A DNA stretch of 64,000 nt, taken from assembly GCF_964204645.1 (NCBI RefSeq), contig NC_134030.1:16244110-16308109 (forward strand), in the 5' to 3' direction. Below, one piece after another: positions 1 to 64,000 of this stretch; position 1 is the stretch's first letter; every line of letters begins with the position of its first letter. Source of the stretch: Tubulanus polymorphus. Lineage: Eukaryota; Animalia; Nemertea. Under the pieces are notes generated by a model. It had not been told where the DNA came from. It searched no databases and saw nothing but the letters and a program-made list of their open reading frames with translations. A program made the position numbers and the translations under genes.

Positions 1-1180
1 CTCTGTCTATCATTATTGGATCTAATCCTTTTTTATATAAAATATCAATGTATCTCGGTAATATAATTGTAACAGACCGTATCAAGGTCATTCAGAATAA
101 TTCTGATTACTTACTAGATCACGAATTAATCGACTCTAATCCTTTGAATAATGATTGTCCTTATATAGATATGTATGACATAACGTGCTTGTTCAGGAAA
201 TATTTTTAATTGTTCTTCATTTAAATCAAGTAATCCTTTTTAAACAAATATTGCATTCGTTCCATTGATTTGTTCCAGTTTCAGTACCAGGTGTATCTAA
301 TATACTATTCATCTCTTCTTCAAATGAATGAACTGTATCTAACATGCTATCAAAATGTTTTACTACTTGTAATTGACTTGAACCATTATCAATTTGTTGA
401 ATATCTCTTCTCGATGTTTCTGGTGTTGAAGTTCTTAATTCATCTAATCTATCTCCATACTCTTCCATTTCTGGATCAACATATGTAGGATTTAAATTTG
501 GATTTTTGAATGGTGAATATTTGTTAATATCAATACCAACATTTGGTTCTTCTTCATTTATTCTATCGAGTGCATCCCATATAATTCTGAGAAATTCTGT
601 ACCACCTTTTGAACGTTCAATTGCAGATCTCGCTAACATTTCAGGATGGTACAGATCGTCTTGTCTTAGATAATTGAATTGATACAGTTTTGTTATTTAA
701 TTCAACATTATAATACAATGAATCATTTTTAAATTCTAAATTATTCATGAAATGTGGATCATCTTCTCTAATTTGTTCTGAAATATCTTCTGGTTCAATG
801 TTATCTGTTACATTTTTTGGTAATAATTCTTCAATAACGGTATTTGTTACACTATGTTTTATGTGTAATAATTCTTTTTTCAATTTAGGGTTTTCTGTTC
901 TTTCTAATCTATTAATTTAATCTTTTCTTTCTGGTCTAGTTTTTATTATTATCTCATCGTGGGTTCTTAAATAATCTGTTAATTTTTCACTTGTTTCAGT
1001 ATCATCTTTAGATTCATCATAATCATATAATATAGGCCCACTAGAATCATCTTCACCTAAATTAGTATTATATGCTGCTCCATCATCATTATCAATAGTA
1101 GTTTCATTAAAAGCAGGTTGTGGTTCATCACTTATACCAGGGGCGTCACCAAAAGTATCAATTGGAATATCTTCTTCCAT
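1..1180 (-). pseudogene. Large acidic element protein, fragmented and cut by the window edge
   Basis: Abutting ORFs 917-1180, 641-883 and 226-639 of similar composition; ATAAATG start. Confidence 0.45.
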
Positions 1181-1195
1181 TTATATAATGAAAAA

Positions 1196-2520
1196 TTAAA
1201 ATTTAAAATATAATATTCCTCCTATTACAATTCCTTTACAAGTTATAGCTAATTTAGCATTTTCATGTGATTTATTATCATTATTACTCTTAATTATTTC
1301 ATGTTGAATAATATCAGTTTTTATATTTTCTGATGTATTGTAATCTTTTATTTGAGAATCATTATTTAATTTTATATTCTTAGTTTTAGTTTCAGTTGAG
1401 TGAATATGTTTTTTAATTTTTTCACCTTCCATTAGTTTTGGAGCAATATTAATATTAATTTTTTTTATATCATTTAATCCAAATGAATTATTTATTGTTG
1501 CAGTGTTAATTAGATTATTATAACCAATTATATTTCCCATTTTTAGTATTAAATCATCAGAAATAATTAATAAATTGGGTCCTATACAATAATTTAATCT
1601 TACATGAGATTTATCTAAATAATTCTGGTAACTATATTTTCTGGAATTAATCTATTTTTATCATTATGAATAGAATCTTCAAATAAAACTTTAAATTGTT
1701 TCTGCGCATCAAATGTAGTATTATCATTTCCAACTATTGGGGATCTTGTTTCAACTTGCGCACCTAAAATACATATCAAATAAGTTCTAATAGATTGATT
1801 TATTCTCTGTATTCCAGCTTTAGTAAAACCTTCACTATTTTCCAAAATAAAATTAATCCATCCATTATTATTTTGTTGTTGTATATTATTATAATATTTT
1901 GTTAATTCATTCCAATTTAGTGTTCTTATATCTGTATTTGTTATTATTTTTCCTAATTCTTTAGTATATAATATTCCTAATCCACCCATTGTACCAATTT
2001 TTGCTCAAAAATCATTATTTGAATTAATATTAAATTCATTACATATTTTATAAAACTTTGATAAATTAATATTATTAATTAGTTCATTAAAATATCTAGA
2101 TCCTGGTAAAGGACATTCTAATTCATTTAATATTATTTTTATTTGAAAATATGTATGAAATCTAAAAAGTGATAATATCAATGGTTAACTTGGTTTATTC
2201 AAATGATCATTCCAACTTATACCACACCCTATTGTTGCACAATAAACAGCAAAATTTAATTGGTTCTGCCAATACTTCATATTAGATTTTAATAACCATT
2301 GTTTTGCCTCATTTAAATCTTTAAAATTAATTAAATATACATGAAATATATTTTCCACCTTAACATTAAAATTATTTGTTTCAGTATCATAAATATCTAA
2401 ATTAATGAATGAATCTAAAACTTCATTTCTATATGAAATATCTTTATTAAAATCTATTGCTGGAATATTATATTTTATTGATTTATTATATTGAAAATCT
2501 TTTGGAAAACTATCTGCCAT
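1196..2520 (-). pseudogene. Uncharacterised element protein (WQNQLNFAVYCAT motif), split over three ORFs, C-terminal hydrophobic anchor
   Basis: ORFs 2185-2520, 1615-1989 and 1196-1540 are joined by coding-like sequence (FHTYFQIKKILNELECPLPG; LNYCIGPNLLIISDDLILKMG). Confidence 0.6.
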
Positions 2521-2649
2521 TTATATAATAAGAAAATTAATAATTAATTAATTCTTTTAATAATTTATACTGCTCTTGAATTGTTGTATTACCATTTAAA
2601 CTTATTATATAATCTAGTGTATTTTTTAATTTATTAATTTCTTTTAGAT

Positions 2650-2985
2650 TTATATATAGATATTAGATTTTATTTTTTCTTTATTACTTTTTATATTCAA
2701 TTTTGAACTTATTCCGGTTAAAACACTTGATGATAATCCTAGCGCATCAATTGTGATAGCTAAAGGTGTTAATGATGAGAATATTGCTAAAAATGTTATT
2801 ACAGAACTAATTGTAACTGAACCACTAATAATAAAATAATATATAATTTTGCTTTTTAAATATTTTTTCTTTTTAAATTTTAAATCATTTTCAAATTCTA
2901 ATATTTGTTTTTCCAAATATAATTTTAATTTAGTTTTATTTATATCATGAGGAATAATATTAACACCATCAATTTTATCATCCAT
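2650..2985 (-). CDS. Putative two-helix membrane protein of the element
   Basis: Basic stretch followed by two hydrophobic segments; ATAAATG start. Confidence 0.5.
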   Translation of the reverse strand: MDDKIDGVNIIPHDINKTKLKLYLEKQILEFENDLKFKKKKYLKSKIIYYFIISGSVTISSVITFLAIFSSLTPLAITIDALGLSSSVLTGISSKLNIKSNKEKIKSNIYI

Positions 2986-3004
2986 TTATTTAGAAAAGAA
3001 ATTA

Positions 3005-3433
3005 CTAATTTGTAAATTTATAAGCAACAAATAATACAATAACAGTTCCGCCTAAAATCCGTATTATTTCATATTTCTTCTGTTCATTACTTGGGGTATA
3101 ATAATCTGATAATTTAGGTTTATATAGATGTAATTTTTCTTTATTTGTTACTGGATTATATAAACTCATTGCATCATCAACTGACTTAAAATCTCTATTT
3201 GAAATTTTCTGATCATATAATTCTTTATTAATACATGTATAATCCATCTAATTTTGTCTTTTTTCTCTATATTCTTCTGCTGCTTTATTATATTTCTCTA
3301 ATGCTAAGTTATGTCTTCTTGGTTCTGCTAATGAACTATTTTTATCAATATGCTTAAATAAATCACCACCACCTGTAAATGCTCAAGCGTTAATAATTGC
3401 CGATCCTATAATAGTTATAATTGCAGAAGCCAT
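3005..3433 (-). pseudogene. Protein with hydrophobic N-terminus, coiled coil and C-terminal transmembrane segment (2 in-frame stops)
   Basis: MASAIITIIGSAIINA*AFTGGG...RRHNLALEKYNKAAEEYREKRQN* is in frame with ORF 3005..3247, which ends IIRILGGTVIVLFVAYKFTN. Confidence 0.55.
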
Positions 3434-3449
3434 TTATTTGATAAAAAAA

Positions 3450-3678
3450 TTATGTATTTATATAGGAGGAATATATTTTTGTTTTTCCAAATAATCAATA
3501 GTTAAATTAGATAAAGTAACGGCTAACGTTAATTTTAAAATATCATTGATGTAAAATCTATCAACATTAATACTTCCCACTTTAAATACTTTTTTAATAC
3601 CATTGTATATCCAACAGTTCCAACTGATAGTAATGCTCCATTATATAAACCAGTTAATATCCACTTATTATCACTCAT
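3450..3678 (-). pseudogene. Small membrane protein of the element (frameshifted)
   Basis: MSDNKWILTGLYNGALLSVGTVGY ... LTIDYLEKQKIFLPI by hand translation; AAATG start context. Confidence 0.45.
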
Positions 3679-4053
3679 TTGTTAATCAAAAAAATCACCT
3701 TCTTCAAAATATTTAGTTCATTTAGTTATAATTATTTCAAAATTTATTTCATTACTACTTTTATGATTATCCTATAATTCAGTTATTATTTTTCTAATAT
3801 CATCAATAATAAAATCTTCATCTAATTCATAAAATCTTAAAGACTCTCTAATTAAATCAGTAATATTTTCTACATCATAAGTTTATTTATTTATTGTTGT
3901 TTCATATTCAAATGTTGTTTCATTTGAAAATGTAATATTTTTGATATGAGTTATTACATCATTAATGTTAAATTTCATTTCTTTCTCGCGTTTAAAATCA
4001 AATCCAAAACAAAAAACTCGGTCCTGTTATATTCATTTATATAGTGAAAAAAG

Positions 4054-4809
4054 TTATTCTTTACATCTTATAACTAATTCATATATCACAGGAAAGTTAT
4101 TCTAATCAATTTAGTATCCATTATGATTTCTTATTTCTAACTTAAAATTATTAAATTTTGGAATACAAGGTTTTAAATCACACTCAGCTAAATTATAATC
4201 TATTTGTGTTCCTAATTGTTTAACATTATTAAATGGTAAAATATTTAATATACTAGAATTACGAATTGTATCTTTAATTGCTTCGAAAGTTTTTACAGGG
4301 TCAAATAAATTGCAATAAATGTAAAAGTGTGTAAAAGGCATTACGATTGGTGAAGCTTCGGCATTACGTATCCTTACATCTAGGTTAATTCCTAACAGTT
4401 TAGCTATAGGTTTTTTAACTACAAATTGATGTTCATCATTAGCTAACTTTATTCTTACTTTATTATTGATATCACTTTTTATAAATTTAATTCCAAATCC
4501 AACAGACCCACCCATTTTTAAACGAGCTCTTTTATTAATTTCTTGCGCTAATCTTTCTAAATTATATAATCCAGGTTTTAAAAATAGATGATACCATTTA
4601 TGCAAATTTCTAGCATGAACTAAAAAAGCTAAATGATCAAGACTTTTATTCGATATATTGTAAAAAGAGTTACATAAACTTATATCTACTAATTTTAAAT
4701 CTACACAATTTTTATATTCCCTATCTACTTGTACTAGTAAATTATGAGATTTATAATTTGTAAGCCTTCTTGAATCAACATATATTCTATATTCTTTTAA
4801 TTCTACCAT
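4054..4809 (-). pseudogene. Putative minor capsid (penton-like, single jelly-roll) protein
   Basis: IYVDSR...LVDISLCNSFYNI...LKPGLYNLERLA...FYIYCNL...ILNILP pattern resembles Polinton/NCLDV penton-like proteins; frame continues past stops as G..ID.NNFPVIYELVI. Confidence 0.6.
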
Positions 4810-4823
4810 TTATTTAACATATT

Positions 4824-5177
4824 TTATTCAAAATCTATATCATGGTGCCCTTTTTCATTCTTACCTTAATATATGGAATAGAAATCACCAGAACATAATT
4901 CTTCTAAATCTTCACTTGATAATCTATGAAATCTATCTGGTAAATATGTTCTGAATTCATATTTATTTCCTTTTAATCCTTCATATTCTAAGAGGATAAC
5001 TAATTTATCTCCATATTTGTTAGAAACCGTATCAATATTTGTAATTAGATATTTCGTATGAATTGTTAGTTCATCTAATTTTTTAGATTTATAATCTACT
5101 GATTTAGCATTTGTGATATCTTTTATTCTATCTAGAAATGATTTGTTGTTCTCACTGTGTGCTTGTTTACTCACCAT
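4824..5177 (-). pseudogene. Small conserved protein, possible OB-fold ssDNA-binding protein (frameshift near the 3' end)
   Basis: KKLDEL...YLI...VSNKYG.KLVI.L...TYLPDRF; close paralogue at 52033-52386; the function is inferred. Confidence 0.5.
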
Positions 5178-5216
5178 TTATTATACATATTTTTATTAAA
5201 ATTGAATTAAAGCCGA

Positions 5217-8200
5217 TTAACATGTTAGAATCCTTTTCATAATTTCATTCTCTTTTATTCCTTCTCTTTTGAACTTTAAGTATTCATCTAAATTGCAACC
5301 ATAAGCTACTGTATGAATTCCATCATCTAAAATATATTTTTTATCATCGAAAGGATTCAAACTTATCTTCTCTATCTCTTCAATAAACATTTCATGATCT
5401 TCGGATCTTAAACATTTCATCTTATGTTTTCTAACGTCTTCATTGAATATACAATTCATGTAATCTTTGAAATGAATATTCTTTTCTACTACACTTTTGG
5501 TAATTCCTTTCAATTTCTTTGATTCGTGAATTTTAGTTTTATAACTATACGTTTTAGATCGAATACCTATAAATTCAATCATTTCTTCACCTCCTAATTC
5601 ATCTTTGAATTTACCGGGCACCTTTTTATTATCATTGCTAAACAATTCATGAGTTTTAGGATAATTGCTGAAATCAAAATGATGTTTTAATGTTTTTAAA
5701 TCATCTGTTATGTTATTAGTTTTAATCTTTAATATGTAACTGTCAGTATCAAAATATAAGATTTCTATATGCTTTTCTCCAAAATGAGGTTGTACGTTAT
5801 AGTAAAATTCATACATCAGTATTTCTAAAACTGAAGCACCAACATAAATTGGTTTATTAAATTTCATAGAAGTTCTTATCAATTTAACTGCAGCTAAATT
5901 TTCATCAAATATTCTGTTACCAATAAATTTAGGGTATGTTTGTAAATGTGTAATTCTTTTACCATTGCTAACTAACTCAATATCATTTCTATTCCTAATA
6001 TTTTCACAAGTCTTACCATAGAATGCATTATTCATTAGTTTGAAAAAATCTTTCTCGAAATCAGTTTTAACTTTATTTCTCTGTTTGGTGTTAAAATCTA
6101 TATATTTTTCTAACCATTTAGATTGACTGAATGAAATATATCTATGTACTTTTTTTAGAATCATTCCTTGATTCAAATAAAACTTCAACATCCGATAATG
6201 CACTACATAATTATATTCATCTTCCCGAGTTACCATTAACTTTTCTGTATGAATATGATTTTCGGGTTTAATTCTTTTTTGATAATTTGATGATTCTTCA
6301 TGTGTTACAGTTTTATGTTCGGGACAGTATGCTAGATTTCTAGATTTAAATTTAATGTTTTTAGGATATTCCAAGTCTACAACGAAAAAGTAGCCAGTAT
6401 CTGAATCATCTGCAATATCTGGAATTCTTTTCTTCCAATCAAATTTATCATTATTTTCATGTTGTAAAACTTCAGTTATTTGAAATAATCCATAAGGCTG
6501 AGGTTCCATCATTGCCCAACCATATAGATTATTTGCATCTATATATAATAACTTATATCTAGGGTTATCATTTACATTGAAATATCTATCACCTAATACA
6601 CCTGAAACTCTTCCTCTTATAGATTTTTCAAATAATAATGATTATAATAATCTATATTTGTTAACAAATCCATTTTTATATCTGTAAATTGTAATCCACA
6701 ATCCCAAGTTAATCCTGGACTCGAATAACAATGACATGGATCAATATTGAAATATTTTAGATTAACATCTCTAAATCTTTCAAATATATCAGTTAATAAT
6801 AATACATCTGATTTTGAATATAAATCTACCAATTGTCCATGATTTTTCATTCCAAAATGATTCCAAATATTCAATGTTCTATTATATACTTCATCTTTAA
6901 CATATTCATTTTTTAATTCATCATAGAATTGTTCTTTTAATAATTCAGTTATATTGAAATCATTATGATTTTTATAAAATGAATATGGAATTGCTCCTTT
7001 ATATCTCATTAATTGAAAATCATCATTATGTGGATAGTGTTGCTTTAATATTTTTAATTCATCATCAACTAATGATTTTGATAAATTATCTAATGAACTA
7101 CTTAAAAATCTATATGAATCTATAAATCTCAGACATCCAAATTGGTAAGATATATAATTCTCAGATGTAACATCTTTAATTTATATGTAGGTATTTTATC
7201 TTTTGATCTATTTGAATTCAATTTTTCTATTTCATTATTGATTTCTTCTATTTTATGACATAACTGTTTGATAAATAAATGTGCATAATACCCTGATAAA
7301 TTATGAAATATTACTGGAACAAAATTAATTTTCGTAGCTTTTAAATTACAATTCTAATGTCCCGCACCTCTAAACTTTCCATTCAAATGATCAAGATCTC
7401 TAACTTTTTTATCTTTACAATTAAATATCTTTTCATAATAATAACATTTGTCTGAAAACTCAAATTCTTCTTTATCTTCTTCTGTCATTATAATTTCTTT
7501 ATTTTTATTCAACAGTTTATTGAATTGTATTTCATATTCAATTAATAAGTCACAAAAATGATTGATAACATTTTCATTTCTATAATGATCTATATTCACT
7601 TTCGATTAGTTCTGGATAATCAGATTTAATATATAACCCGAAAGCTGCAGCACTTTGATGAATCTTTTTAATAGTATTTGTTATAAGTGGATCTGAATAA
7701 TCAATTACATCATTTTCATTACAATTTAATTTCTTTCTTTTATGATATATTTCCTTTCTATCTTGATCAGTTAATTCCTTATTTAGTGATTCAAAATCTC
7801 CATATATTACAAATGGTACTTTATTTTTTTAATCATATTTTTTGAATTCTAATATCTTATCTTTTTCAATTGGTAAAATCATTTTACAATAATCATGATT
7901 ATCACATAATTGTTTATGATTTAATAATGTACTTCCATTGCTGAATCTATGTACTAAACATTTTCTACATAGATATATTTTATTGTGATTATTTTCTTTT
8001 CTAAAACAGAAATCGATTTGTTTTATCCACATATAATGATTTTCATAATATAATATATTTATAACACCATTTGAATCATAATCCTTTGATAAATACAGTG
8101 GCTCTAATGTAAAATGTTCAATTTTATTGCCTTTTGTACTTGGTAATTTGATTAAATCGAATACATTTATTTTTAGATTATTATCTTTTTCTATTTTTGG

Positions 8201-9205
8201 GATATTTTTAATTCTTACAGGATAATTATCTATCTTATGATTATTTTCAAATTGTTTATAATTTGTTAATCTAAAACTATGTGTAATATCTTCTGTTGGA
8301 TGTAAGCAACTTATAACTGTCCATAGAAAACATTTATCATCTTCATTTTGTACATTTATAACAGCATTAGTTTTAAATGGTAATTTGATATAACTCGACG
8401 CTTCAATATCTGTTTCTTTATAATATGATAAATTATTTTCATCAATTGGTTTCGATTTAGTTAATTTATTATATTTTGTATTGTATACATGCAAAGTCAA
8501 AAATATTATTTCATCAAATATTAAACCTGATCCTTCAAAATATTTCTCTTCTATTTTACTTTTTTATTTCATCAATATGTTGTTTTGAAATAATATGTTG
8601 TGAATGAGAATTTATATTATATATTGGTTTATCTTCAGATTTTATAAATTTAACTTTAACTGATATGCTAATTTTAGGGTATTCAACATCAGTAATTATT
8701 CTTATAATACTTTTCATATTTTCTAAATGTTTTTTTTATTTTCTTCTGATGTTTTGCCTTTATGAAATTTAAATTCAATAGCAGCTGGTCCAATATCACT
8801 TTTGAATGCTTTTGTATTATTTTGGTTATTTCTATTTCTTTTTTATTATCTAATGAATTAATATAATTTCTAACATCTTCCATGTATGGTCTTTTATTGT
8901 TTAATTTATTCTTTATTCTTTTAATTGTCTTCTGTTTCTTATCATTATCTTTATCAAAATAATCTTCACCTAAAATATCATTATTGATATTCCTAATATG
9001 ATTTTTAGATTTTAAATGTTCTTTATAATATCTTTTATCACTGAATGATTGTTTACATGTATCACATTTGTATGTTTCTTTTTCATTCTTTAATTCATCT
9101 AATTTAGTTTCTAATATATCATCTTTATATTCTAACTTTATTATTTATTTATTTATCTATTATTTATTTTTTATAAATTTATTTTCTAAGTGTGTTTTAG
9201 TTTTA
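5217..9205 (-). pseudogene. polB: Protein-primed DNA polymerase B (pPolB), disrupted
   Basis: Fragments across ORFs 5217-8883: C2H2-like finger, NEDDKCFLW...HYMWIK (vOTU-like), KVRDxDHLNGKFRG (endonuclease VII-like), DANNLYGWAM, KLMNNAFYGKT, YFDTDS, KKLKG; several stops and frameshifts; start region deleted. Confidence 0.93.
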
Positions 9206-9272
9206 TTCAAATTTTTTATTAAAATTGATTTTAGAAGTTATTCATATTCATATATATGTATGAATATTTTAA

Positions 9273-9388
9273 GAGTAATAGGGATAATAGGGGTTCATAA
9301 CAAAGGTTGAGGGATCGAAAAATAAATTCGAGTGTGCCAGAATTTACCCTTCGACCTTTGGTATGAACCCCTATTATCCATATTACTC
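9273..9388. repeat. Terminal hairpin of element A (116 bp, internally shortened)
   Basis: GAGTAATAGGGATAATAGGGGTTCATAACAAAGG ... CCTTTGGTATGAACCCCTATTATCCATATTACTC. Confidence 0.95.
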
Positions 9389-9808: not shown

Positions 9809-9890
9809 CTATAAAGTGCCGGATGGTCCAAATTAGAGCTCATTGATTAATTCGAATGTTTAATTTTCTACACGACTGTTTACTTTTTAC

Positions 9891-10035
9891 CTTAAATTCC
9901 ACCAGTGTTTGTTGTATTGCTGGGATGTTGTTTGTCCACTAAATACTCTCCATCTCCATTGATCAACAAGATATCCAAACGGTAAGAATGATACTTTTTC
10001 TAACGCTTGTTTGAATAAGAAATTCAAATCTGCTT
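9891..10035 (-). CDS. Ace: ACE-family exon 10
   Basis: [48 protein letters not shown]; 145 nt. Confidence 0.97.
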
Positions 10036-10201
10036 CTATGGAAAAATGCCGATTACATCATATATCAAACAGCTATTTTCATACTTACGCGCTAAATTTT
10101 CACTTGCATGCCCTGGCATATAATATGACAATTCATCATCCATTTGCAGGACATCTTCAGGTGAAGTAGTGGGAAAATGTCTTACTCAATAAAGGGAATA
10201 T

Positions 10202-11556
10202 GAGTAATTGGAAAATGACGTTTTCATACCAGAGAGTGACTCGCCACTACTTTTTTAAAGATACATATTTCACTACATAAATGGCAGGAATATGGTAGAA
10301 GATAAAAACAAATATAATGGTCCAAGTTTTAACATCTTGTCAACCTCATAAAGCTTGCCATGAAAAAATCGAGAAAACAGATGAAATAGATGAAATCAAA
10401 TGTGAGGTTTGTTATGAATTTATACATAAAATGAAGTATGATAGAGATCTTGAAATATCAAAACACAAGCAAAATCTGAGTGAAAATAATACAGGAGAAT
10501 ATTATTGTGATGACAAACCTGTAAAAAATCAATCAAAAACATGATTCTAAAACTAAATCTAATTCGAATAATCCTTATATATGGAAATATTAGAGATTAT
10601 ATCAATTCATTAGAAAGAAAAGATAGAATTGTTATACATGAAAGAAGATTATACTTTTACGAAGATTTTTAGATTCTTTCAAGGTATAACAACAAAAGAA
10701 TATAGAAAATATATTGAAAGAACGGAAAAGATAATACACATCGTAACGCGTAATCATTTAAATATGACATCCTACCATTACGTTGGATGCGATAAAACCA
10801 CAATACACTTTTTCATTAGGATTGAATTTTCTAAATTCATCATCTAAGTTACATTGAGTTCCTATATCATTGAATGATTTTCCATTATCTAATTCACATT
10901 GAATTGCAATATTTGATGAATTTTCATTATAGATAATTTGTTATTATCAAAATTGAAATAATATAATTGTCTTTTTTCAATTCTTAAGTTAATCAAATCA
11001 TTGTAACCTTTCGAAAGTATTAAATCATCATTTCTTTCATTGAAAGGAGTTTGAATAATATTTACTACGTTTTCATCTAAAGTTCCTTTATAATTTAAAA
11101 CTGTATTGAATATTTGAGGATTTTGAGCACCATTATCAAAAGTATCAATTAGTTCAGTAATTAAATATGTTTCATTTGATAATATTTGATTAATTACAGT
11201 AATATTATCAATTTTATAATGCCTCTCATACACTAAATTTGATGCTGAGATATAACTTTTAATGTTAAACTGTGAAAATAATTTAATTTAATTTTTTTTA
11301 ATGTTAAAAATTTATATTTTATCATTCGAAATCTATATTTGATCTTATTTTTCTAGATTATCATGCTAACACTTTACTCTCACTTTTAAAATATGGAAAT
11401 ATTAGAGTAATTGGGAATATGGGGGTTCATAACAAAGGTTGAAGGGGCGTGTGAGTAAAAAATAAAAATATATTCGAGCGTGCGAGAATTTATTTTTATT
11501 TTTTACGAGCTCGACCCTTCGACCTTTTGTATGAACCCCCATATTTCCAATTACTC
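10202..11556. mobile_element. Internally deleted derivative B with both ends, in ACE intron 9
   Basis: Left end GAGTAATTGGAAAATG...TTCATAC is inverted relative to the right end; right end is a 152-bp hairpin (11405-11556); ATAT on both flanks; relic of the pPolB N-terminus at about 10280-10620. Confidence 0.8.
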
Positions 11557-42129: not shown

Positions 42130-42264
42130 TATGGGCGGCCATCCCCGCCAAACAGACGCTAAAGTCATCACGTGAAGGATAAACCCATAACGTGAAGTAT
42201 AATGTAGTAACGTGAAGGATAAACTCATAACGTGAAGGATAATGTCATGACGTGAAGGATAACG
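42130..42264. repeat. TATGGGCGGCC terminus plus 20-bp tandem repeat (ACGTGAAGGATAA...), 5 copies
   Basis: Start resembles the terminus at 36579; the repeats are directly visible. Confidence 0.7.
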
Positions 42265-42701
42265 TACAATTTTATGATTTCATTTTAATATTTTATTAAT
42301 TATTATTCTAATATTTAACTTTTATATATTTGAAACATATAATCTAATATTTAAGATTTAGTTTTGATATTTTATTAATCATTTCTAAAATATTGAATTT
42401 TTATACATTTAAAACATACAATTTTATGATTTCATTTTAATTTTTCATTAATTATTTTTAAAATATTTAACTTTAATATATTTGAAATACATAATTTTAT
42501 ATTTAATCTTAATGTTTTATTAATCACTTATAGAATATTAGACTTTTATATTTTTAAAACATACAATTTTATGATTTCATTTTAATATCTTATTAATCAT
42601 TTTTAAAATATTTAACTTTTATATATTTAAAACATATGATTTTATTTTATCAATTTATTATTATGTTTTAGTTTAATATATTTGAGATGAAATATATCTA
42701 T

Positions 42702-43277
42702 TTAGAGTTGAATTATAATTTTTGAGTTATTATATTTTGATTTAAGATGATGCGATTTATTGCTTCGAGTATAATATTTTCCACAATTACATAACGCTTT
42801 TTCATTAGGTTCATATTTAGGTGTTTCGATTTTATTGTCTAAATTACATTGAATTCCAACATCTTTGAATGATTTTTCATTTGGAATGTCAGGGATAAAT
42901 GTTTTTTCTTGTAATCTGAAAAACATTACATTGCATTCTCTGAATGGACAGTAACGTAAGTGTAAAAATAATGTTTTATGTGAATTTTCATTATTAAATA
43001 GTGATCGTATTGCATCTGTAATCATTAAATGTTTAACTATTCCATCAAATGTTGTGAATTTTGGAATTATTGTATTGAATAAGATTTTATCTTTTTCATT
43101 CGATAACTCTATCATTAGATAATGATTCTTAAACATTAATTCAGTAATATTATTCACTTGAAAACGAAAACGTGCAGTTTTAATCAAATCTTTAATAGGA
43201 ATAAAATTTCTAATTGTAAAATATTTTTCTAATTCATTTAAATCGATATCTTTGAATTGTAGTATCTGTTCATTCAT
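42702..43277 (-). CDS. Uncharacterised 191-aa element protein with a C-terminal zinc-finger-like motif
   Basis: Open frame; CNCGKYYTRSNKSHHLKS; preceded by TCAATTTTAATAAAAA...ATAAATG. Confidence 0.6.
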   Translation of the reverse strand: MNEQILQFKDIDLNELEKYFTIRNFIPIKDLIKTARFRFQVNNITELMFKNHYLMIELSNEKDKILFNTIIPKFTTFDGIVKHLMITDAIRSLFNNENSHKTLFLHLRYCPFRECNVMFFRLQEKTFIPDIPNEKSFKDVGIQCNLDNKIETPKYEPNEKALCNCGKYYTRSNKSHHLKSKYNNSKIIIQL

Positions 43278-43670
43278 TTATTAGAATTTTTTTTATTAAA
43301 ATTGATATTTTCATCAACTCGTTAATTAAAATTAAATTTGAGTTAAATTTGATCAATTTACTCGTTAATTACTCGTTAGTTTTTTAATTGATATATATAA
43401 TTATTTCTCTATATTTGGGCTTATTAATCTAAATTATTTTAGTCACACTTTATTCACACTTTTTATGTTAAAAATTGATTTTAATTCTAACAACTCGTTA
43501 ATAACTCGTTATTTTTTATCACACTTTTTATGTTTGCACTTTACTCACACTTTTTATGTTTAAAATTGATTTTTTAATCATTCGAAATCTATATTTATCT
43601 AGATTATTATGCTAACATTTTACTCGCACTTTTAATATATGGAATTATTAGAGTAATTGTATATATAGGG

Positions 43671-44730
43671 TAGAATGATTACCACACTCAAACGTGGTGA
43701 ACGGATTATAAGATAAAATCCCACTATTTACAGATTAAAAGAATTTAAAAACCGGAATTTATTTATTAAATCTAAAATATACAATAGACACGACGTTTCG
43801 ACTTCACCCTAGAGATCATCGTCAGGTGTGAGAAATAGACTAAAAACAGGGGTATATATACAGAGGAGAACAGGTTAATTGAGTAAATTGGTGAGTGAGT
43901 AAATAATTAGTGTTTGGCAAGGCATGAAGTAATATACATTCTTATAATAGTAATATACATAACACTTCTTTTCGTTTACTGCCAAATCAATCATAATCGG
44001 TCTCGCTCAACGCCTCTTTCTCCGTGCACTACGGATCTGCGATGAAACCTTCCTTTCGGCTGAATTTGACCATATATCCAACTCTCTTAGAAAATTGGCT
44101 TACCCTGATCACATTTTGAAAATCGCTATTTCTAAGGCTAAACGTACTTTCTTCAATTCTAAACCTCCAGAAAATAAAAAACACATTTCAGAGTTCATTG
44201 TAGTTCCGTATGTACCTGTTTTGAAAAAGTTTCGTCACTCTCTCCCTTTATTGGATAAACAAATCATTTTCACGTATGAAAACAAAATTAGTAAGACTTT
44301 GGTTAAAAACAATCAATCTAAACCTTTGGACTGCGGAGTTAACAAAATTCCTTGTTTTGGCTGTGATAAAATTTACTTTGGAGAAACTGGTCGTGATTTA
44401 AAAACTCGAATTTCGGAACACAAAAATGATATAATAAATCAAAAACCTGCTAGTGGCGTAGCCAATCACGTTTGGAACACTGGTCATCGTTTTAATTTTG
44501 ATAAAGCCGAAATTATTTATACTTCCAGCAATTACACTAAACGCCACATAGTTGAGTCTGCCCTAATTACTCGTCACTCAGATATTAGTACCAATTTAAA
44601 TAATGGCTTTTCTCCTGACGATGATCTCTAGGGTGAAGTCGAAACGTCGTGTCTTTTATATATTTTAGATTTAATAAATAAATTCTGGGTTTTAAATTCT
44701 TTTAATCTGTAAATAGTTGGATTTTATCTT
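43671..44730 (+). mobile_element. Truncated Penelope-like retroelement (RT tail and GIY-YIG endonuclease) with inverted pseudo-LTRs and 15-bp TSD
   Basis: GVNKIPCFGCDKIYFGETGRDLKTRISEH; 43710-43826 is inverted at 44613-44730; ATTGTATATATAGGG duplicated at 43656-43670 and 44731-44745. Confidence 0.92.
44613..44655 (+). ncRNA. Hammerhead-ribozyme-like core in the Penelope pseudo-LTR (inverted copy at about 43786-43826)
   Basis: CTGACGA...GAAAC core; minimal hammerheads are known from Penelope pseudo-LTRs; fold not verified. Confidence 0.55.
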
Positions 44731-44989
44731 ATTGTATATATAGGGGTTCAGATTAAAGGTTGAAAGGTTGAGTGAGTAAAAATGAAAAATAAATTCGAGC
44801 GTGCGAGAACTTATTTTTCATTTTTTATGAGCTCGACTTTTCGAACTTTGATCTGAACCCCTATATATACAATTCCTAAAGACCACAGGCAAGTACCTAG
44901 GATGATGTAGCGCGTGTATGGAAAGTCATATTGGAAATCACATCAGGGAAGAATGGATGACGCCATCCATTTCAAGATCGTCTCGGAAA

Positions 44990-47699: not shown

Positions 47700-48888
47700 G
47701 TTGTAAAAATGCAACCATCTTATCACAACTAAAATCAAAAAACTTTGGATGATTTGGGAAAAAACAGAAACAAAATTAACTCCAAATAATGGAGCTTTAA
47801 ATGATATCACCACAATAATTGAATATCATCTTTAATGTAAACATCAATGAGAAATATTAATAGCATCCAGGAAACGTAAAGATTTCATTGGTAATAACTT
47901 AACTCATAATGAATTAGATAAAATGAAACCAGACCAAATTATTAAATTACTCTAGATTTATGAAACTGCGAGAATTGCGAGAATTAATGACGCGATATCA
48001 GAAAATGTAGTAACAGGTTATTCTAAATTATGCAATTACTTGCTCCCAATTGATGATAAAAATGGATTATATTCCGATTTAAAAAATTATCATAAAGCAA
48101 TGACTGAATTAAATAAATGGATTGGATATTTATAATTTCGATTAGGTGGATTTATGACATTATTATCAACGGGAGTTTACAAACGTTGAAAGTAAAAATT
48201 TTGCTTTAATAGATGATCGAAGTAGAAGTGAAAGAAATCTGTGAGGGAAAAACCGAGAACAGAGAAACAAATCGAATGGTCTCGGCAATTATAAATTAAA
48301 TCTAAAGAGTTTAGAAAAGCAAAAAAGGAAAACATAAGTAAATTAAATAGTGAAAATATCAGAGATGAAACTCGGATAAAAAGCAGCAGTTGTTGAGCGA
48401 TTAAATAAAACAGTAAGAACACGAATGTGGGAATATTCTATTTCATCTTATTTACTGATTTTTTTATATTCATTCAACAATTTCTGAATCATGATGACTA
48501 TCTTCATTTTTAACCATGATAAACTATTTTAAATCCTTCTAAATCTTTTAATTCAACCTTATTCAATATAACCCATTTATCAGGTAGAAGTACCCTAAAT
48601 TCACGTGTTGTGTTTTACACTACAATAACTGAGATGAGCCGTTATTTTTTCACGATATTTAGTTTTTAATATCTATTTTTTTTTCTAATTTCATTATTTT
48701 ATGTTCAATTTTTTGTGAAACATCGACTAATTTTTATATTTTATATTCTTACTTCGATGGTTTTATTCCGTTATTTATCGATGCTAAGAAGGTCTTTCCG
48801 TCTTCCATTTAAAAGGAAAAAAAATTACGGAGTGCGGACGACTTGCCCCCTCGTCCCCTGGTATGAAACCCACATATTTCAGTTACTA
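47700..48888 (+). mobile_element. Derivative D of the virus-like element, in ACE intron 1
   Basis: 47790-48350 is a decayed paralogue of the genes at 63023 and 63612 (ELDKMKPDQII, RINDAIS, YSKLCN, RTEKQIEW); ends in a single arm CTGGTATGAAACCCACATATTTCAGTTACT like the left end of B. Confidence 0.7.
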
Positions 48889-51820: not shown

Positions 51821-51974
51821 GAGTAATAGGGAATATGTTGTTCTAGATCAAAGGTCGAAAGGTCGAGTGAGTAAAAAATGAAAAATAAATTCTCGCACAC
51901 TCGAATTTATTTTTCATTTTCTACTCACTCAACCTCTCAACCTTTAATCTAGAACAACATATTCCCTATTACTC
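51821..51974. repeat. Terminal hairpin of element E (154 bp)
   Basis: GAGTAATAGGGAATATGTTGTTCTAGAT ... ATCTAGAACAACATATTCCCTATTACTC. Confidence 0.96.
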
Positions 51975-52032
51975 TTAAAATATTAATCTAATATCTTCTA
52001 AAATCAGTTTTAATAAAAAATTTGATATTAAA

Positions 52033-52386
52033 ATGGAGAGTAAACAAGTACACAGTGAGAACAACAAATCATTTCTAGATAGAATTAAAGATATCACTAA
52101 TGTAAAATCTGTAGATTATAAATTCAAAAAGTTAACAGAATTAACAATTCATAAGAAATATCTAATTACAAATATTGATATAGTTACTAACAAATATGGA
52201 GATAAATTAGTTATCCACTTAGAATATGAAGGATTAAAAGGAAATACATATAAATTCATAACATATTTACCAGATAGATTTCATAGATTATCAAGTGAAG
52301 ATTTAGAATAATTATGTTCAGGTGATTTCTATTTCATATATAAAGGTAAGAATGAAAAAGGGCACCATGAAATAGATTTTGAATAG
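52033..52386 (+). pseudogene. SSB-like small protein (one internal stop), paralogue of 4824-5177
   Basis: Near-identical translation to the copy A gene. Confidence 0.55.
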
Positions 52387-52426
52387 AATATGTAAAATCA
52401 ATTTTAATAAAAAATTTAGTATTAAA

Positions 52427-55400
52427 ATGGAAGCAAATAAGTACTACTGTTTAACATGTAAAATTGATATGGATAAATCTCAAAAAGCAAGACACAATAA
52501 AACTAAATCACACTTAGAGAATAAATTGAAATTAGAATATAAAGATGATATATTAGAAACTAAATTAGATGAAGTAAAGAATGAAAAAGAAATATATAAA
52601 TGTGACGCGTGTAATCAATCATTCAGTGATAAAAGATATTCTAAAGAACATTTTAAATCTAAAAGTCATATTAGAAATATCAATAATGATATTTTAGGTG
52701 AAGAATATTTTGATAATGATAATGATAAGAAACAGAAGACGATTAAAAGAATTTAAAAAGAAATAAAATAAACAATAAAAGGCCATACATGGAAGATGTT
52801 AGAAATTATATTAATTCACTGGATAATAAAAAAGAAATAGAGATAAATGAAGCAATTAAAAGTGATATTGGGCCAGCTGCTATAGAGTTTAAATTTCATA
52901 AAGGTAAAAAATTAGAAGAAATTAAAAAAACATTTAGAAAATATGAAAAATATTATAAGAATGATTACTGATGTTGAATACCCTAAAATTAGTATATCTT
53001 CTAAAGTTAAATTTATAAAATCTGAAGATAAACCAATATATAATATAAATTCCCACTCACAACATATTATTTCAAAACAACATATAGATGATAAATCAGA
53101 TAAATGTTATAATGTAATAAAAAGTAAAATAGAAGAGAAATATTTTGAACGGTCTGGTTTAATTGTTGATGAAATAATATTTATGACTTTACATGTTTAT
53201 AACACAAAATATAATAAGTTTACTAAATCAAAACCAATTGATGAAAATAATTTATCATATCATTATAAAGATGATAATATTAATGGATCAAGTTATATCA
53301 AATTACCATTTAAAACTAATGCTGTTATAAATGTACAAAATTCTGATGATAAATGCTTTCTATGGTCAATAATTAGTTGCTTACATCCTGCAACTGGTAA
53401 TATTTGTAGAGTATCAAATTATAAACCATTTGAAAATAATTATAAGATAGACAATTATCCTGTTAGAATTAAAAATATCCCAAAAATAGAAAGAGATAAT
53501 AATATAAAGATAAATGTGTTTGATTTAGTCAAATTGCCAAAAACAAAAGGTAATAATATCAAACATTATACAATCGAACCTCTAAACTTATCAAAAGATT
53601 ATGATTCAAATGATGTTATAGATATATTATATTATGAAAATCATTATATGTGGATAAAACGTATTGATTTATTTTTCAAATCAGAAAATGATTTTAATAA
53701 TAAAATATATCTATGTAGAAAATGTATAACTAAATTCAGAACCGAAAGTGCATTATTAAATCATAAACAATTATGTGAAAATCATGATTATTGTAAAATA
53801 GTTTTACCAAATGAAAGGGATAAAGTATTGGAATTCAAAAAATATGATTACAAGAATAAAGTACCATTTGTTATATATGGAGATTTTGAATCATTAAACA
53901 AAGAATTAACTGATCAAGATAGAAAAGGAATATATCATAAAAGAAAGGAATTAAATTCTAATGAAAATGATATAATTGATTATTCAGATCCTCTAATAAA
54001 AAATACTATTAAAAAGATTCATCAATCAGCTGCAGCTTTCGGGTTATGTATAAAATCTGATTATCCAGAACTAATTAAAAGTGAATATTATAATTATTGA
54101 AATGAAAATGTTATCAATCATTTTTGTGTCCTATTAATTGAGTATGAAATCAAATTTAGTAAACTATTAGATACAAATATAGAAATAATTATGACAGAAG
54201 ATAAAGAAGAATTTGAGTTTGCAGATAAATGTTATTATTGTGAAAAGATATTTAATTATAAAGATAAAAAAGTAAGAGACCATGATCATTTGAATGGAAA
54301 GTTTAGAGGCGCGGCGCATGAGAATTGTAACTTACAAGCTGAGAAAATCAATTTTGTTCCAGTAATATTTCATAATTTATCAGGATATGATGCTCATTTA
54401 TTCATCAAACAGCTATGTCATGAAATAGAAGAAATCAATAATGAAATAGAAAGATTAAATTCAAATAAATCAAAAGATAAAATACCAACTTATAAATTTA
54501 AAATGTTAGCTAAAACATCTGAGAATTATATATCATTCCAATTTGGGTGTCTAAGATTTATAGATTCATATAGATTTTTAAGCAGTTCATTAGATAATTT
54601 ATCAAAATCATTAGTTGATGATGAATTAAAGACATTAAAACAACACTACCCAAATAATGATGATTTTCAATTAATGAGATATAAAGGCGCAATACCATAT
54701 TCATTTTATAAATCGCATAATGATTTCAATATAACTGAATTATTAAAAGAACAATTCTCTGATGAATTAAAAAATGAATATGTTAACGAATATACATGTG
54801 TATATGATAGTATATAATCGAACATTGAATATTTGGAATCATTTTAAAATAACAAATCATGGACAATTAGTAGATTTATATCTAAAATCAGATGTATTAT
54901 TATTAACTGATATATTTGAAAGGTTTAGAGATGTAAACCTAAAATATTTTAATATTGATCCTTGCCATTGTTATTCATCACCAGGATTAACTTGCGACTG
55001 TGGTTTAAAATTTACAGATATAAAAATGGATTTGTTAACAAATATAGATCAATTATTATTATTTGAAAAATCTATAAAAGGAGGAGTTTCAGGTGTATTA
55101 GGTGATAGATATTTCAATGTAAATGATAATCCTGGATATAAGTTATTATATATAGATGCAAATAATCTTTATGGATGGGCAATGATGGAACCACAACCTT
55201 ATGGAGTATTTGAAATAAGTGAAGTTCTACAACATGAAAATTGATGGGAAGAAAATAATTCTAGATATTGCAGATGATTCAGAGACTGGTTACTTCTTTG
55301 TTGTAGACTTGGAATATCCTGAAGATAAAAAATTTAAATCTAGAAATCTAGCATACTGTCCAGAACATAAAACTGTAAAGCATGAAGAATTATCAAATTA

Positions 55401-56462
55401 TCCAGAAAGAATTAAACCCGAAAATCATATTCATAAAGAAAAGTTAATGGTAACTATAATGATAAATATAATTATGTAGTACATTATAGAATGTTGAAGT
55501 TTTATTTGAATCAAGGATGATTCTAAAAAAGTACATAGATATATTTCATTCAGTCAATCTAAATGGTTAGAAAAATATATAGATTTTAACACCAAACAGA
55601 GAACTAAAGCTAAAATTGATTTTGAGAAAGATTTCTTCAAACTAATGAATAATGCATTCTATGGTAAGACTTGTGAAAATATTAGAAATAGAAATGATAT
55701 TGAGTTAGTTAGTAATGGTAAAAGAATTATACATTTACATACATATCCTAAGTTCATAGGTAACAGAATATTTGATGAAAATTTAGCTGCAGTTAAAATG
55801 AGGAGAACATCTATGAAATTTAATAAACCAATTTATGTTGGAGCTACAGTTTTAGAAATATCAAAGTTATTAATGTATGAATTCTATTATAACGTATTAC
55901 AACCTCATTTTTGGAGAAAAGCATATTTTGATACTGACAGTTACATATTAAAGATAAAAACTAATAACATAACTGATGATTTAAAAACATTAAAGCATCA
56001 TTTCGATTTTAGTAATTATCCTAAAGATCATGAATTGTTTAACGATGATAATAAAAAGGTGCCTGGTTAATTCAAAGATGAATTTGTGGTGAAGAAATGA
56101 TTGAATTCATTGGTATTAGATCTAAAATGTATAGTTATAAAACTAAAACTCATGAATCAAAGAAATTGAAAGGAATTACTAAAAGTGTAGTAGAAAAAAA
56201 TATTCATTTCAAAGATTACATCAATTGTATATTCAATGAAGAAGTTAGAAAACATAAGATGAGATGTTTAAGATCTGAGTACCACGAGATGTTTATTGAA
56301 GAGATAGAAAAGGTTAGTTTGAACCCATTTGATGATAAAAGATATATTTTAGATGACGGAATTCATACAGTCGCGTATGGTTGCAATTTAGATGAATACT
56401 TAAAATTCAAAAGAGAAGAAACAAAAGAGAATGACATTTTAAAAAGGATTCTAGCGTGTTAA
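52427..56462 (+). pseudogene. polB: Protein-primed DNA polymerase B, disrupted
   Basis: Two C2H2-like fingers, vOTU-like segment, YGDFE and HNLSGYD exonuclease motifs, RDHDHLNGKFRGAAHENCN, DANNLYGWAM, KLMNNAFYGKT, YFDTDS, FDDKRY. Confidence 0.95.
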
Positions 56463-56515
56463 TCAAATTTTAGTAAAAATATGAGTATATAATTTAGTAA
56501 AAATATGTATAATAA

Positions 56516-61913: not shown

Positions 61914-63022
61914 AATTCAACACAGAATGAAAAATACGTTGAATCTTAAGCGTTTATAATAAGAACTCTACTCGAGTCGCTCGTGTATGTGTGTATATAG
62001 CTCTCTATTATAACTGCCTATTGCAATTATACTAGTAGCATCTGTGCCACATTTTATATTCAGTTGAATGAGGAGTACCTCATTTGAATATTGATCGAAC
62101 GTGCTCTTTCAGTTGAAAAGGATTGATCAATTTCATCACAAAAGAACATCTGTTGCAAAAGGTGGAATATAGACCGCATAGGACTTCTCACTAGAAACAC
62201 AATTAGGAGTTTATAGTTATAAATGTAAGTACTGTTTTTGTTGTTATTAAGACGCCGGGAAACGTTAAACATGTTTCAGTGTATTAATCTATATTTGAAA
62301 ACTACAACTTCAAGTTAGTTTTATTCTACGCTAGATATTTATCTTTTAGATAACAAAATGCTACGCGTAACAAGAAGACCATTGCTACTTGAACCAAGAA
62401 AGTGAAGATAGGAGGATGTGGAATCAGAAATTATGGATATTTCAACTCATGAGACTGTAGCAGTTTAGCCATACTGTATAGACTTTCAATGCATTACGTT
62501 TGCCGGAATTTCAATTGCGTCATTCAGCTGTTGTTAATGTTGCAGTGACAGATGTTGTATTATACTTTATTGATTTCTGCATTCCGCGCATACCTTACCG
62601 CTCGGCTCCCGAGCGGCTTGGAATGTGGAAATCGATACTGACTGTATAAAATATATGTGTTTATATAATAGTAATTCCATCAGTCGTTTGTTTGAATTGA
62701 TTTTCAGTATGAGGATTTATTATCGAGGATCCGAAATGACTTATCTGGACAATTAATTGCTCCTATAGATAGACTATAGTAGTGAGATAATCTAAAGCCT
62801 AATTTAAATGAAATATATTAGAAATCACATACCTTCAACTAGCCATTATTTCTATTTTAATATTTTTCAAAATCTAATATTTCTTTTCAAAAAGAGAATA
62901 CTTTATATTTTGATAAGATTCGAATAGAATTTCTTTAACTTAACTAAGCTAGTATTTAAAATTCATTAACTTAACTAGCTAGTATTAAAATATATTTTTC
63001 TTGCTTTTTCTCTCTATTATAA

Positions 63023-63619
63023 ATGTCAAAGAAATCTAATAAGAATAGTATTGATATTGAAAAAACCTTAGATGATTTTGGCATTAGTGATAATAAAGAT
63101 ACAGTTGTTTCTAATTGTATTCAAAATGATAATATTGATTATGAATACTATTTGATGTGTAAGCATCATCTTGAATTACTAATTGCTGGCGGGAAATCTA
63201 AAGAATTCTTGGGAAAAATTGTAACTTATCAAGAACTAGATGCTATGAAGCCAGATAAAGTAATAAAACATTTCAAAATATATGAAGAAGCTAGATTGGC
63301 CCGAATAAATGATTCTATTTCTGATGGTATTATAAAATGTTATTCTAAATTATGTAACCGGATAATACCAATTGAAGATGAAAATAAATTATATAGTGAT
63401 TTGAAAAATGACTATTTAGTTATGACAGAATTACAGAAATGGGTTGGATACGCTTCATTTCAATTAGGTGGAATAATGACATTAATTTCTGCTGGAGCTA
63501 TAACATTTTCTAACATTAAACCTTTAGTATGTAAAGATAATAAATCAGAAGATGGTGCCGTATGGCACCCACACTGTGATATTGAATCAGAACAAAAATT
63601 AACTAAAATAAATGAGTGA
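63023..63619 (+). CDS. Uncharacterised 198-aa element protein with a C-terminal hydrophobic segment
   Basis: Open frame, ATAAATG start, decayed paralogue at about 47790-48180. Confidence 0.7.
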   Translation: MSKKSNKNSIDIEKTLDDFGISDNKDTVVSNCIQNDNIDYEYYLMCKHHLELLIAGGKSKEFLGKIVTYQELDAMKPDKVIKHFKIYEEARLARINDSISDGIIKCYSKLCNRIIPIEDENKLYSDLKNDYLVMTELQKWVGYASFQLGGIMTLISAGAITFSNIKPLVCKDNKSEDGAVWHPHCDIESEQKLTKINE

Positions 63620-63962: not shown

Positions 63963-64000
63963 AATAAAATTAAATGAAAAAAAGAACAATATTTAAGAGA

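Follow-up and report, generated by a model that had tools for sequence, protein, structure and literature searches.

Polintons or Mavericks (Polintoviricetes; adintoviruses) provide the closest described framework for the elements considered here, and the available text on Mavericks reports AGT...ACT ends together with 6-bp TSDs (PMC8097293). Virophages of the Mavirus/EMALE type likewise combine a pPolB with an rve integrase and occur as endogenous copies, and the accessible account describes their promoters as copies of the late promoters of the helper, matching its late motif (PMC8547959). The entomopoxvirus-associated PLVs, small elements with a DJR capsid that occur in entomopoxvirus occlusion bodies, have been proposed as poxvirus hyperparasites, one of them being integrated in an insect genome; their genomes carry a protease gene of the adenovirus type, and no integrase was detected in those with a PolB (Barth et al. 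2024, PMC11296320). Neither TAAATG nor the word 'promoter' occurs in that main text. Vaccinia late promoters consist of TAAATG preceded by a conserved T at position -10, and intermediate promoters of TAAA with an A-rich upstream region and without the T at -10 (PMC11980589). Among the papers listed in a literature search that covered mainly open-access main texts, none connected TAAATG, promoters of the pox type or a hairpin end with Polintons of animals.

The whole stretch of DNA analysed here (the window, 64 kb from Tubulanus polymorphus) holds five pieces of one element family (copies A to E, Table 1), which is a Polinton-type endogenous virus with a copy number of about 50-150 as estimated from read depth. 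The original prediction had overlooked the fifth piece, copy D, and also a second, short, non-hairpin end type that forms the left end of B and the right end of D. Copies A and E lie in inverted orientation and share 87% identity across 4,076 nt. Copy A had been taken to end at 9388; 468 raw reads from another sample leave the element exactly behind 9387, at the sequence ...ACT-3', and their agreement beyond this true terminus is only 0.35, which implies many different flanks. The ends read 5'-AGT...ACT-3', and a 4-bp TSD with G/C inside the element is ruled out by the 9387 terminus. Copy B, which is non-autonomous, is the only copy with both ends, and no full-length copy with both was seen; it combines AGT...ACT ends with a six-base target duplication matching at 5/6 positions (chance ~0.007), the sole TSD available and one with a mismatch. 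A search for element ends within the window located neither the left end of copy C nor the hairpin end of copy D.

Table 1. Features of the element copies in the window.
Feature	Position	Strand	Remarks
Copy A	1..9387	-	All genes on - strand, many broken; left window edge cuts inside 485-aa-like gene
Broken 450-485-aa gene homologue	226..1180	-	Assigned by position and weak similarity; counterpart precedes MCP in L005 and L006
440-aa family gene, C-terminal membrane anchor	1196..2520	-	Broken by two stops and one frameshift; no Pfam or fold match
SLATT-like membrane gene	2540..2985	-	L005 homologue: SLATT_fungal E 0.0013
Three small broken genes (126-, 75-, 139-aa families)	3005..4036	-	L005 version of the 139-aa family: two hydrophobic helices
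Penton-like gene	4111..4809	-	Conserved family; putative identity from motif pattern and position
103-aa gene, no assigned function	4866..5177	-	Starts with TAAATG (A class); L005 and copies D and E have homologues
Protein-primed PolB	5217..8735	-	Several ORF pieces, split by stops and frameshifts
C2H2 zinc-finger ORF piece, upstream of polymerase	8689..9144	-	zf-met E 5e-4
Terminal hairpin of copy A	9274..9387	.	114 nt, shorter than other copies' hairpins; outer end 5'-AGT
Left target-site hexamer of copy B	10197..10202	+	5/6 match to 11556-11561
Copy B	10203..11555	-	1.35-kb non-autonomous element, both ends present: short end 10203-10232, hairpin 11406-11555
Copy C	42160..44877	-	Deleted derivative: 191-aa ORF 42702-43277, hairpin 44731-44877; insertion 43708-44732 splits copy
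Copy D	47740..48887 (start approximate)	+	Rearranged fragment: gene X remnant, integrase remnant 48380-48436, inverted 103-aa-family remnant, short end 48858-48887
Copy E	51822..64000	+	Hairpin 51822-51973, 103-aa gene, zinc finger, broken pPolB 52943-56462; right window edge cuts copy
Copy E, right part	Gene X 63023-63619, membrane gene 63612-63962	+	HNH-like gene split by LINE

The expectation that A and E encode a Polinton-type pPolB was borne out: the broken genes match DNA_pol_B_2 and Endonuclease_7, an insert resembling Endonuclease VII being visible in copy E, and share 34-43% identity with the pPolBs of loci L001-L003. The DNA_pol_B_2 match (E 2e-5) falls under the curated cut-off because the polymerase gene is in pieces. 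The ORF described as penton-like in copy A is likewise present, and it is one that we take to be penton-like from a motif pattern and from its position; its identity found no library support, with a weak DUF5901 match (E 0.025), no match among PDB sequences and a negative profile comparison between its family and an ORF of L002. The HNH-like gene of copy E resumes past the LINE insertion at ~61737.

Integrase, ATPase, protease and capsid genes had all been considered unrecognisable, a statement that is not wholly correct. A 19-aa rve remnant in copy D is 74% identical to the integrase of a close relative, L005 (E 8.7e-5), and L005 itself, which matches part of A at 81% DNA identity and keeps the same gene order, runs on past A's cut point into a double jelly-roll capsid gene, an rve integrase (E 1.5e-10) with a chromodomain (Chromo, 1.2e-6) and an A32 ATPase (Pox_A32, 4.6e-11). 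Among the 18 family loci of at least 7 kb, MCP and ATPase occur in 18/18 and integrase in 13/18. Capsid, ATPase and a complete integrase have been demonstrated in relatives and not in T. polymorphus itself. Both large copies had been described as cut by the window edges; no capsid/integrase/ATPase block was found inside copy E, which spans 12 kb and is taken to have lost it, and this internal lack means that the window edge alone cannot account for the absence there. Replicases have been swapped within the family, with an SF1 helicase in L028 and L083. The maturation-protease motif, which detects 3/3 control loci where Pfam overlooked both controls, was found in 0/80 family loci, all of them partial elements, and nowhere in the window.

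The predicted structure of the MCP (pLDDT 80.9) resembles double jelly-roll capsids, with a best BFVD match at E 6.9e-19 and matches to SGIV and PBCV-1 at E ~1e-15; in the fold search the Mavirus/EMALE MCP ranks below the iridovirus and PBCV-1 capsids, and in BFVD a single Adintovirus entry, 12% identical, takes rank 19. No named references appear among 98 MCP matches, the MCP profile has no match among PDB sequences, and the MCP has no tblastn match in the phage collection. Homolog searches with the capsid, the ATPase and the 440-aa protein returned relatives without an informative name, neither the alignments of the 440-aa protein and the MCP nor the L005 integrase retrieved a confirmed relative from IMG/VR, and the pPolB scan there yielded three loci, all of other types.

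Several ORFs of copy A have intact relatives with hydrophobic helices, in agreement with the membrane-protein genes predicted there. One of the membrane-anchored proteins, of 440 aa, belongs to a large family comprising 3,201 clusters at 50% identity, and its confident predicted model has no fold match (0 BFVD matches at E 0.001, a best Z of 4.5 in VIA, no usable match in Atlas), although such failed matches do not establish a new fold. This protein provides a marker for finding the lineage. Membrane-anchored proteins of this kind might build a membrane-containing virion with no need for a maturation protease.

Bidnaviruses and parvoviruses possess a terminal hairpin of ~150 nt that is potentially self-priming, and Bidnaviridae combine a pPolB with a ssDNA genome, a parvovirus-type capsid and no integrase. 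The window element shares the ~150-nt terminal hairpin with both groups and the pPolB with bidnaviruses, whereas its syntenic relative L005 encodes a double jelly-roll MCP, ATPase and integrase and the element itself is genomic with TSD-type flanks, a combination that argues against membership in Bidnaviridae. As originally described, the hairpin is self-contained, present in A and E and recurring in B and C (z scores from -13.9 to -17.9 relative to 100 dinucleotide-shuffled sequences). Hairpins measure 114-152 nt, have the same orientation in 4/4 copies and fold 4.8-9.0 kcal/mol better on the strand bearing the hairpin at its 3' end; their arms are alike at 30-31/34 positions within a copy versus 23-27/34 between copies. 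Copy B has a ~30-bp imperfect terminal repeat and lacks long TIRs, as seen in a non-autonomous element. No window-type hairpin was found in the 83 loci collected, mostly short contigs. The short end may be a protein-primed origin, and the displaced strand could then self-prime from its own 3' hairpin, replacing the panhandle of long TIRs. Such a one-sided hairpin suggests a mode of replication intermediate between the adenovirus type and the parvovirus type.

These features place the element beside Polintons and Mavericks, with which it shares pPolB, a putative penton-like gene, AGT...ACT ends and a 6-bp-type TSD in the window, together with the chromodomain-bearing rve integrase, A32 ATPase and double jelly-roll MCP of L005. 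It appears to be unlike them in its ~30-bp imperfect repeat and one-sided hairpin in place of long TIRs, its several membrane-anchored proteins, its poxvirus-type start signals and the lack of a protease motif in 80 partial loci. The outcome named beforehand as refuting a distinct lineage is borne out by about half: three of the four genes and the TSD are standard; long TIRs and the protease were not found. The proposal of a distinct lineage is upheld in part. An endogenous linear DNA virus lineage is supported that departs from canonical Polintons in how its ends are built, in its set of membrane proteins and, as it seems, in having no protease; the absence of integrase, ATPase and capsid and an integration route of its own are not supported.

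Among the 14 window gene starts that could be placed, 11 read TAAATG and two TAAAATG, against a background of TAAATG at 20/242 ATGs on A's coding strand. Stop-start coupling was rejected as the source, the TAA being the upstream gene's stop in only 5/100 cases. Two upstream classes are apparent, a T-run before membrane and structural genes and an A-run before the penton, 103-aa, zinc finger/polymerase and HNH-like genes. In L004-L007, a T lies 10 nt upstream of TAAAT in 25/26 genes versus 20/53 other TAAATG sites, the 26 genes stemming from four related loci and hence not being independent; in the more distantly related TAA loci, 16 in all, the T peaks at -11 (92%), with only 62% at -10, and just 4/6 T-class genes of the window have T at -10. 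The share of TAAATG is bimodal (at least 60% in 19/42 loci, at most 10% in 21/42), and TAAATG-rich loci, where background TAA-ATG is 2-14%, are also AT-rich (GC 20-44% vs 37-59%). The trait is retained between loci whose MCPs share ~33% identity; they fall on a single branch with strong support, together with two non-TAA loci, the only ones with a VLTF3-like gene. The motif also occurs beyond this lineage, since 5/5 starts are TAAATG in L003, a protease-motif-bearing Polinton-like locus that came to light by a route other than this capsid family. In sequence, the two start classes correspond to the late and intermediate promoters of vaccinia, and the element appears to share with virophages putative promoters that match a helper's late motif; Mavirus and EMALE differ in their protist host, mimivirid helper, TCTA motif and possession of a protease.

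The reading we tentatively prefer, as plausible if still short of probable, is that the window holds decayed copies of an integrating Polinton-type DNA virus, likely a virophage-like parasite of a poxvirus-type helper. The element's own integrase likely pasted the virus into the host genome, as indicated by the 9387 terminus, the flanks of B, the integrase remnant in D and the Maverick end motifs and TSDs. Transcription of the element genes would likely fall to the RNA polymerase of a poxvirus-like helper infecting the same cell, with the T-run and A-run classes acting as late and intermediate promoters in the helper's cytoplasmic factory. Against this reading, an integrase requires access to the nucleus, and no helper virus, transcript or virion was seen. 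It is possible, though rather doubtful, that the virus was instead autonomous, replicating in the nucleus with host Pol II transcription, and that TAAATG and the T/A runs serve as an initiator or a translation context particular to the element or its host, whose pox likeness reflects convergence or old inheritance. The encoded polymerase and integrase, the amplification in a nuclear genome, the association of TAAATG with low GC and its occurrence in L003 are compatible with autonomy, as is the finding that half of the family has the same morphogenetic genes but not the motif; however, the motif abuts the ATG, where Pol II TATA-to-start spacing would not fit, background TAA-ATG is low in TAAATG-rich loci, and the T position and two-class split fit the vaccinia promoters.

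A helper other than a poxvirus, whether a different cytoplasmic member of the Nucleocytoviricota (asfarvirus-like or not) or a polymerase of the linear-plasmid type, seems unlikely. Many starts read TATATAAATG, which also contains the ASFV late initiator TATA as given in the available text (PMC7458399), and a TAAAN initiator is described, in the part consulted, for yeast cytoplasmic linear elements (PMC6211774), but it is the vaccinia late promoter that is described as TAAATG overlapping the start codon with T at -10, and TAAAT is absent from the main text of the ASFV review (PMC7458399). Least credible, and in our judgement highly improbable, is the initial view of an element devoid of integrase, ATPase and capsid that integrates by its own hairpin-dependent route. 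Although neither A nor the 12-kb E retains an intact capsid, integrase or ATPase gene and the host's MCP and ATPase genes were not directly seen, the synteny and gene content of L005, the integrase remnant in D, MCP and ATPase in every long family locus, and AGT...ACT ends with a near-perfect 6-bp duplication all speak against it.

The lineage may equal a known cnidarian lineage with PLV-like capsids: Polinton-3_NV/Polinton-N1A_NV, and the octocoral, hydrozoan and bivalve ATPases that group with Aquintoviruses, are possibly the same; the passages describing them give neither gene content nor end structure nor a promoter motif. A broader and more speculative proposal, which we regard as possible though rather doubtful, is that of a widespread, unnamed group of Polinton viruses whose virions contain a membrane and need no protease. 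It would include the first endogenous animal virophages tuned to poxvirus transcription, with two promoter classes copying the intermediate/late cascade, a genome replicated from one protein-primed end and one self-priming hairpin, and about a hundred integrated copies from which an invertebrate host could mobilise a defence against poxviruses, as an inducible reservoir. For animal Polintons, which may be autonomous viruses or parasites of larger ones, the vaccinia-like promoter signature names a candidate helper class. If the poxvirus-type helper reading is true, undescribed poxvirus-like viruses would exist in such invertebrate hosts.

Five pieces (A-E) of one AT-rich element family are present in the 64-kb window, set in animal DNA that contains exons of an ACE-like gene together with LTR and LINE remains; B, C and D are located between these exons, and A lies directly past the last one detected. 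The exons mark the host as an animal, presumably an invertebrate. The PolB region common to A and E is 87% identical over 4,076 nt. In raw reads from another sample labelled as the same species (~12% of the run, 82% likeness), depth over the bins of A from 1252 to 9174 is ~300-950x, compared with ~6x in two flanking host bins, which corresponds to roughly 50-150 related copies in the genome, provided that the two host bins are single-copy. Left of 1250 in A, depth drops to 60-140x.

Element copies and neighbouring features in the window
Feature	Position	Strand	Description
Copy A	1-9387		broken protein-primed PolB (pPolB)
Copy B	10203-11555		1.35 kb, both ends kept
Copy C	runs to 44877		deleted or rearranged piece
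Copy D	runs to 48887		deleted or rearranged piece
Copy E	51822 to right window edge		broken protein-primed PolB
ACE-like (angiotensin-converting-enzyme-like) host gene exons	9890-10057, 46987-47178, 50140-50367	-	Peptidase_M2
Insertion in C	43708-44732		1 kb, 119-bp inverted ends; divides inner arm of C hairpin; looks Penelope-like by eye
LTR retrotransposon remains	20835-22184 and 30183-33313		integrase, reverse transcriptase, aspartic protease, DUF1759
LINE remnant	~57000-61400		RVT_1 E 1.2e-9; inside HNH-like gene of E
Palindromic, tandemly structured repeats (several)	18300-20420 and 35925-38040		probably MITE- or foldback-like

The original prediction recognised no integrase, packaging ATPase, protease or capsid genes in the elements. 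Copies A and E as present in the window do not show the capsid/ATPase block, but the lack is not family-wide, as both genes occur in L005, a close relative of A, and in 18 long loci. The translation of the A gene at 1618-2520, with two stops read through as X, matched 156 relatives, whose alignment led to metagenome loci, the best 80 of 219 confirmed being used. Over 1,834 nt, the 11.5-kb locus L005 shares 81% identity with A, and its genes follow one another as they do in A (103-aa, penton-like, three small genes, SLATT-like, 440-aa, 485-aa), the 485-aa gene being equated through its place in the order and a weak similarity. Next in L005 come a 415-aa protein, an integrase of the rve type with a chromodomain, a Pox_A32 ATPase, gene X and a membrane gene. 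The 415-aa model (pLDDT 80.9) resembles capsid proteins of the double jelly-roll type, with 117 matches in BFVD at E 0.001 (best 6.9e-19) and further matches to the capsids of SGIV and PBCV-1. The window edge cuts A immediately ahead of the position of this capsid gene, and E crosses the LINE into gene X, the capsid/integrase/ATPase block being absent there. Among the 18 family loci of at least 7 kb (within the best 80 of 219), MCP and ATPase are each present in 18/18 and integrase in 13/18; capsid and ATPase are known from these relatives' loci, not from the host's own sequence. An integrase remnant of 19 aa in D, together with the integrases of the relatives, removes the integrase-free novelty and makes such an element highly improbable. 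L005 also carries a deoxynucleoside kinase gene (10340-10981, E 1.7e-31). Elsewhere the same capsid module is joined to varied replicases, either SF1 helicase or differing pPolB types (L028:9279-11516, L083:9970-12552, L035, L047, L071).

Hydrophobic helices occur in 5/16 L005 ORFs (Kyte-Doolittle scan). The 440-aa protein has no Pfam match; its model is confident (pLDDT 84.7) and chiefly helical, with an anchor at the C-terminus. Its family comprises 3,201 clusters at E 0.001, and the constant position of the gene within the capsid module suggests that the protein takes part in a membrane-containing virion. A protease motif matched 3/3 control loci, 0/80 family loci (best 80 of 219) and nothing in the window. 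Because Pfam failed on both protease controls and all family loci are incomplete, a maturation protease is no more than likely to be absent from the lineage.

The predicted hairpin end stands: an imperfect palindrome of 114-152 nt terminates A, B, C and E (z -13.9 to -17.9), with identical orientation in 4/4 copies. Its coordinate in A shifts from 9388 to 9387, where 468 raw reads exit the window (agreement 0.35), defining a terminus of the form 5'-AGT...ACT-3'. The second end of B and the end of D form a short type (~30 bp, without hairpin), scoring 23-24 against each other versus 17-22 against three hairpin ends as queries; this asymmetry is based on one complete non-autonomous copy (B) and one additional short end (D). 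Hexamers flanking B agree at 5/6 positions (chance ~0.007). Vertebrate Maverick ends are given as (AGT)2...(ACT)2 with 6-bp TSDs in the relevant part of PMC8097293, so that the AGT...ACT ends and hexamer match constitute an ordinary integrase signature, contradicting the separate integration route originally proposed. The data show or strongly imply insertions made by integrase, spread to many copies and decayed to deleted or shuffled derivatives that keep their ends. Hairpin arms are more alike within than between copies, and folding is better on the strand carrying the hairpin at its 3' end, consistent with one arm being copied from the other and with 3' self-priming.

A promoter signature absent from the original prediction marks the gene starts. 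Among 14 placed in the window (genes with lost starts excluded), 11 have TAAATG, 2 TAAAATG and 1 CAAATG, compared with TAAATG at 20/242 ATGs on the A coding strand. Thirteen form two classes. A T-run lies upstream of six (gene X plus five membrane/structural genes; T class), and an A-run upstream of seven (penton, both 103-aa genes, the zinc finger/polymerase 5' gene, the HNH-like gene, the ORF of C and a 130-aa gene; A class). In L004-L007, T occupies -10 in 25/26 TAAATG genes versus 20/53 other TAAATG sites (Fisher p 4e-7, with non-independent orthologues), and in 16 distant loci (64 genes) T peaks at -11 (92%). According to the sections of PMC11980589 cited here, vaccinia late promoters have TAAATG across the start codon and a conserved T at -10, and intermediate promoters have TAAA, A-rich upstream sequence and no T at -10. 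The TAA doubles as the upstream gene's stop in 5/100 cases. Among 42 loci with at least 3 family genes, 19 have at least 60% TAAATG starts, 21 none and 2 lie between. On the 21-row MCP tree, 8 TAAATG rows fall with L009 and L011 on one 100/100 branch; the trait requires 2 changes and may have a single origin. L009 and L011, both non-TAAATG, are the only loci with a VLTF3-like gene (L009:3239-3748, L011:3782-4279). L009:7430-7843 encodes a Bcl-2 homologue (E 2e-18). In the raw reads, 77 connect window 5194 to 9222, and further reads part at 9209. Element copies vary in the gene adjoining the hairpin, as between A and E, and the A-class upstream motif common to these genes may be a recombination joint.

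The reading favoured here, still tentatively, combines poxvirus-type helper transcription, pPolB priming at the short end, hairpin self-priming and a protease-free membrane capsid. Once a poxvirus-type virus has infected the cell, its polymerase would act as helper and transcribe A-class genes first and T-class genes late; pPolB would prime from the short end, the strand displaced in this way would self-prime on the hairpin, and the ATPase would fill a double jelly-roll capsid bearing membrane proteins, without a maturation protease. Helper-matched promoters are an accepted basis for virophage activation in the cited part of PMC8547959. Against a poxvirus-type helper, the TAAATG trait goes with low GC and also appears in L003, a locus not reached through this capsid family. 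An autonomous virus of the nucleus whose motif merely resembles poxvirus promoters is the less probable account. Still more doubtful is another cytoplasmic helper, for which alternative matches are offered by ASFV late initiators (TATA; PMC7458399, in part) and yeast linear elements (TAAAN; PMC6211774, in part). L003 itself is Polinton-like, with a protease motif and integrase; its long ORFs start with TAAATG in 5/5 cases, and it contains an internal palindrome of 184 nt. Animal Polintons beyond this lineage may also carry the signature.

The element resembles a Polinton/Maverick in its mode of action. Compared with Polintons/Mavericks (gene frequencies in part of PMC4028283), pPolB, integrase, MCP, ATPase, end motif and TSD are all found, MCP and ATPase in relatives; long TIRs and a protease are missing or unproven here, and the element is therefore kept out of canonical group 1. 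PLVs are without the protease and, for the most part, also without the rve integrase, as outlined in PMC4642659. The cited portions of the Polinton/PLV literature, including PMC11071296, PMC8502044, PMC11161782 and bioRxiv 10.1101/2023.10.06.561300, describe neither a one-sided hairpin end nor a TAAATG promoter. Parts of PMC10120064, PMC11296320, bioRxiv 10.64898/2026.06.19.733378 and bioRxiv 10.64898/2026.10.13.758929 report cnidarian and bivalve elements whose capsids fall outside the main groups, and the window element may belong to that lineage. Overall, it represents a Polinton-type lineage that is under-described and combines a hairpin on one side with a putative, testable promoter code of poxvirus type.
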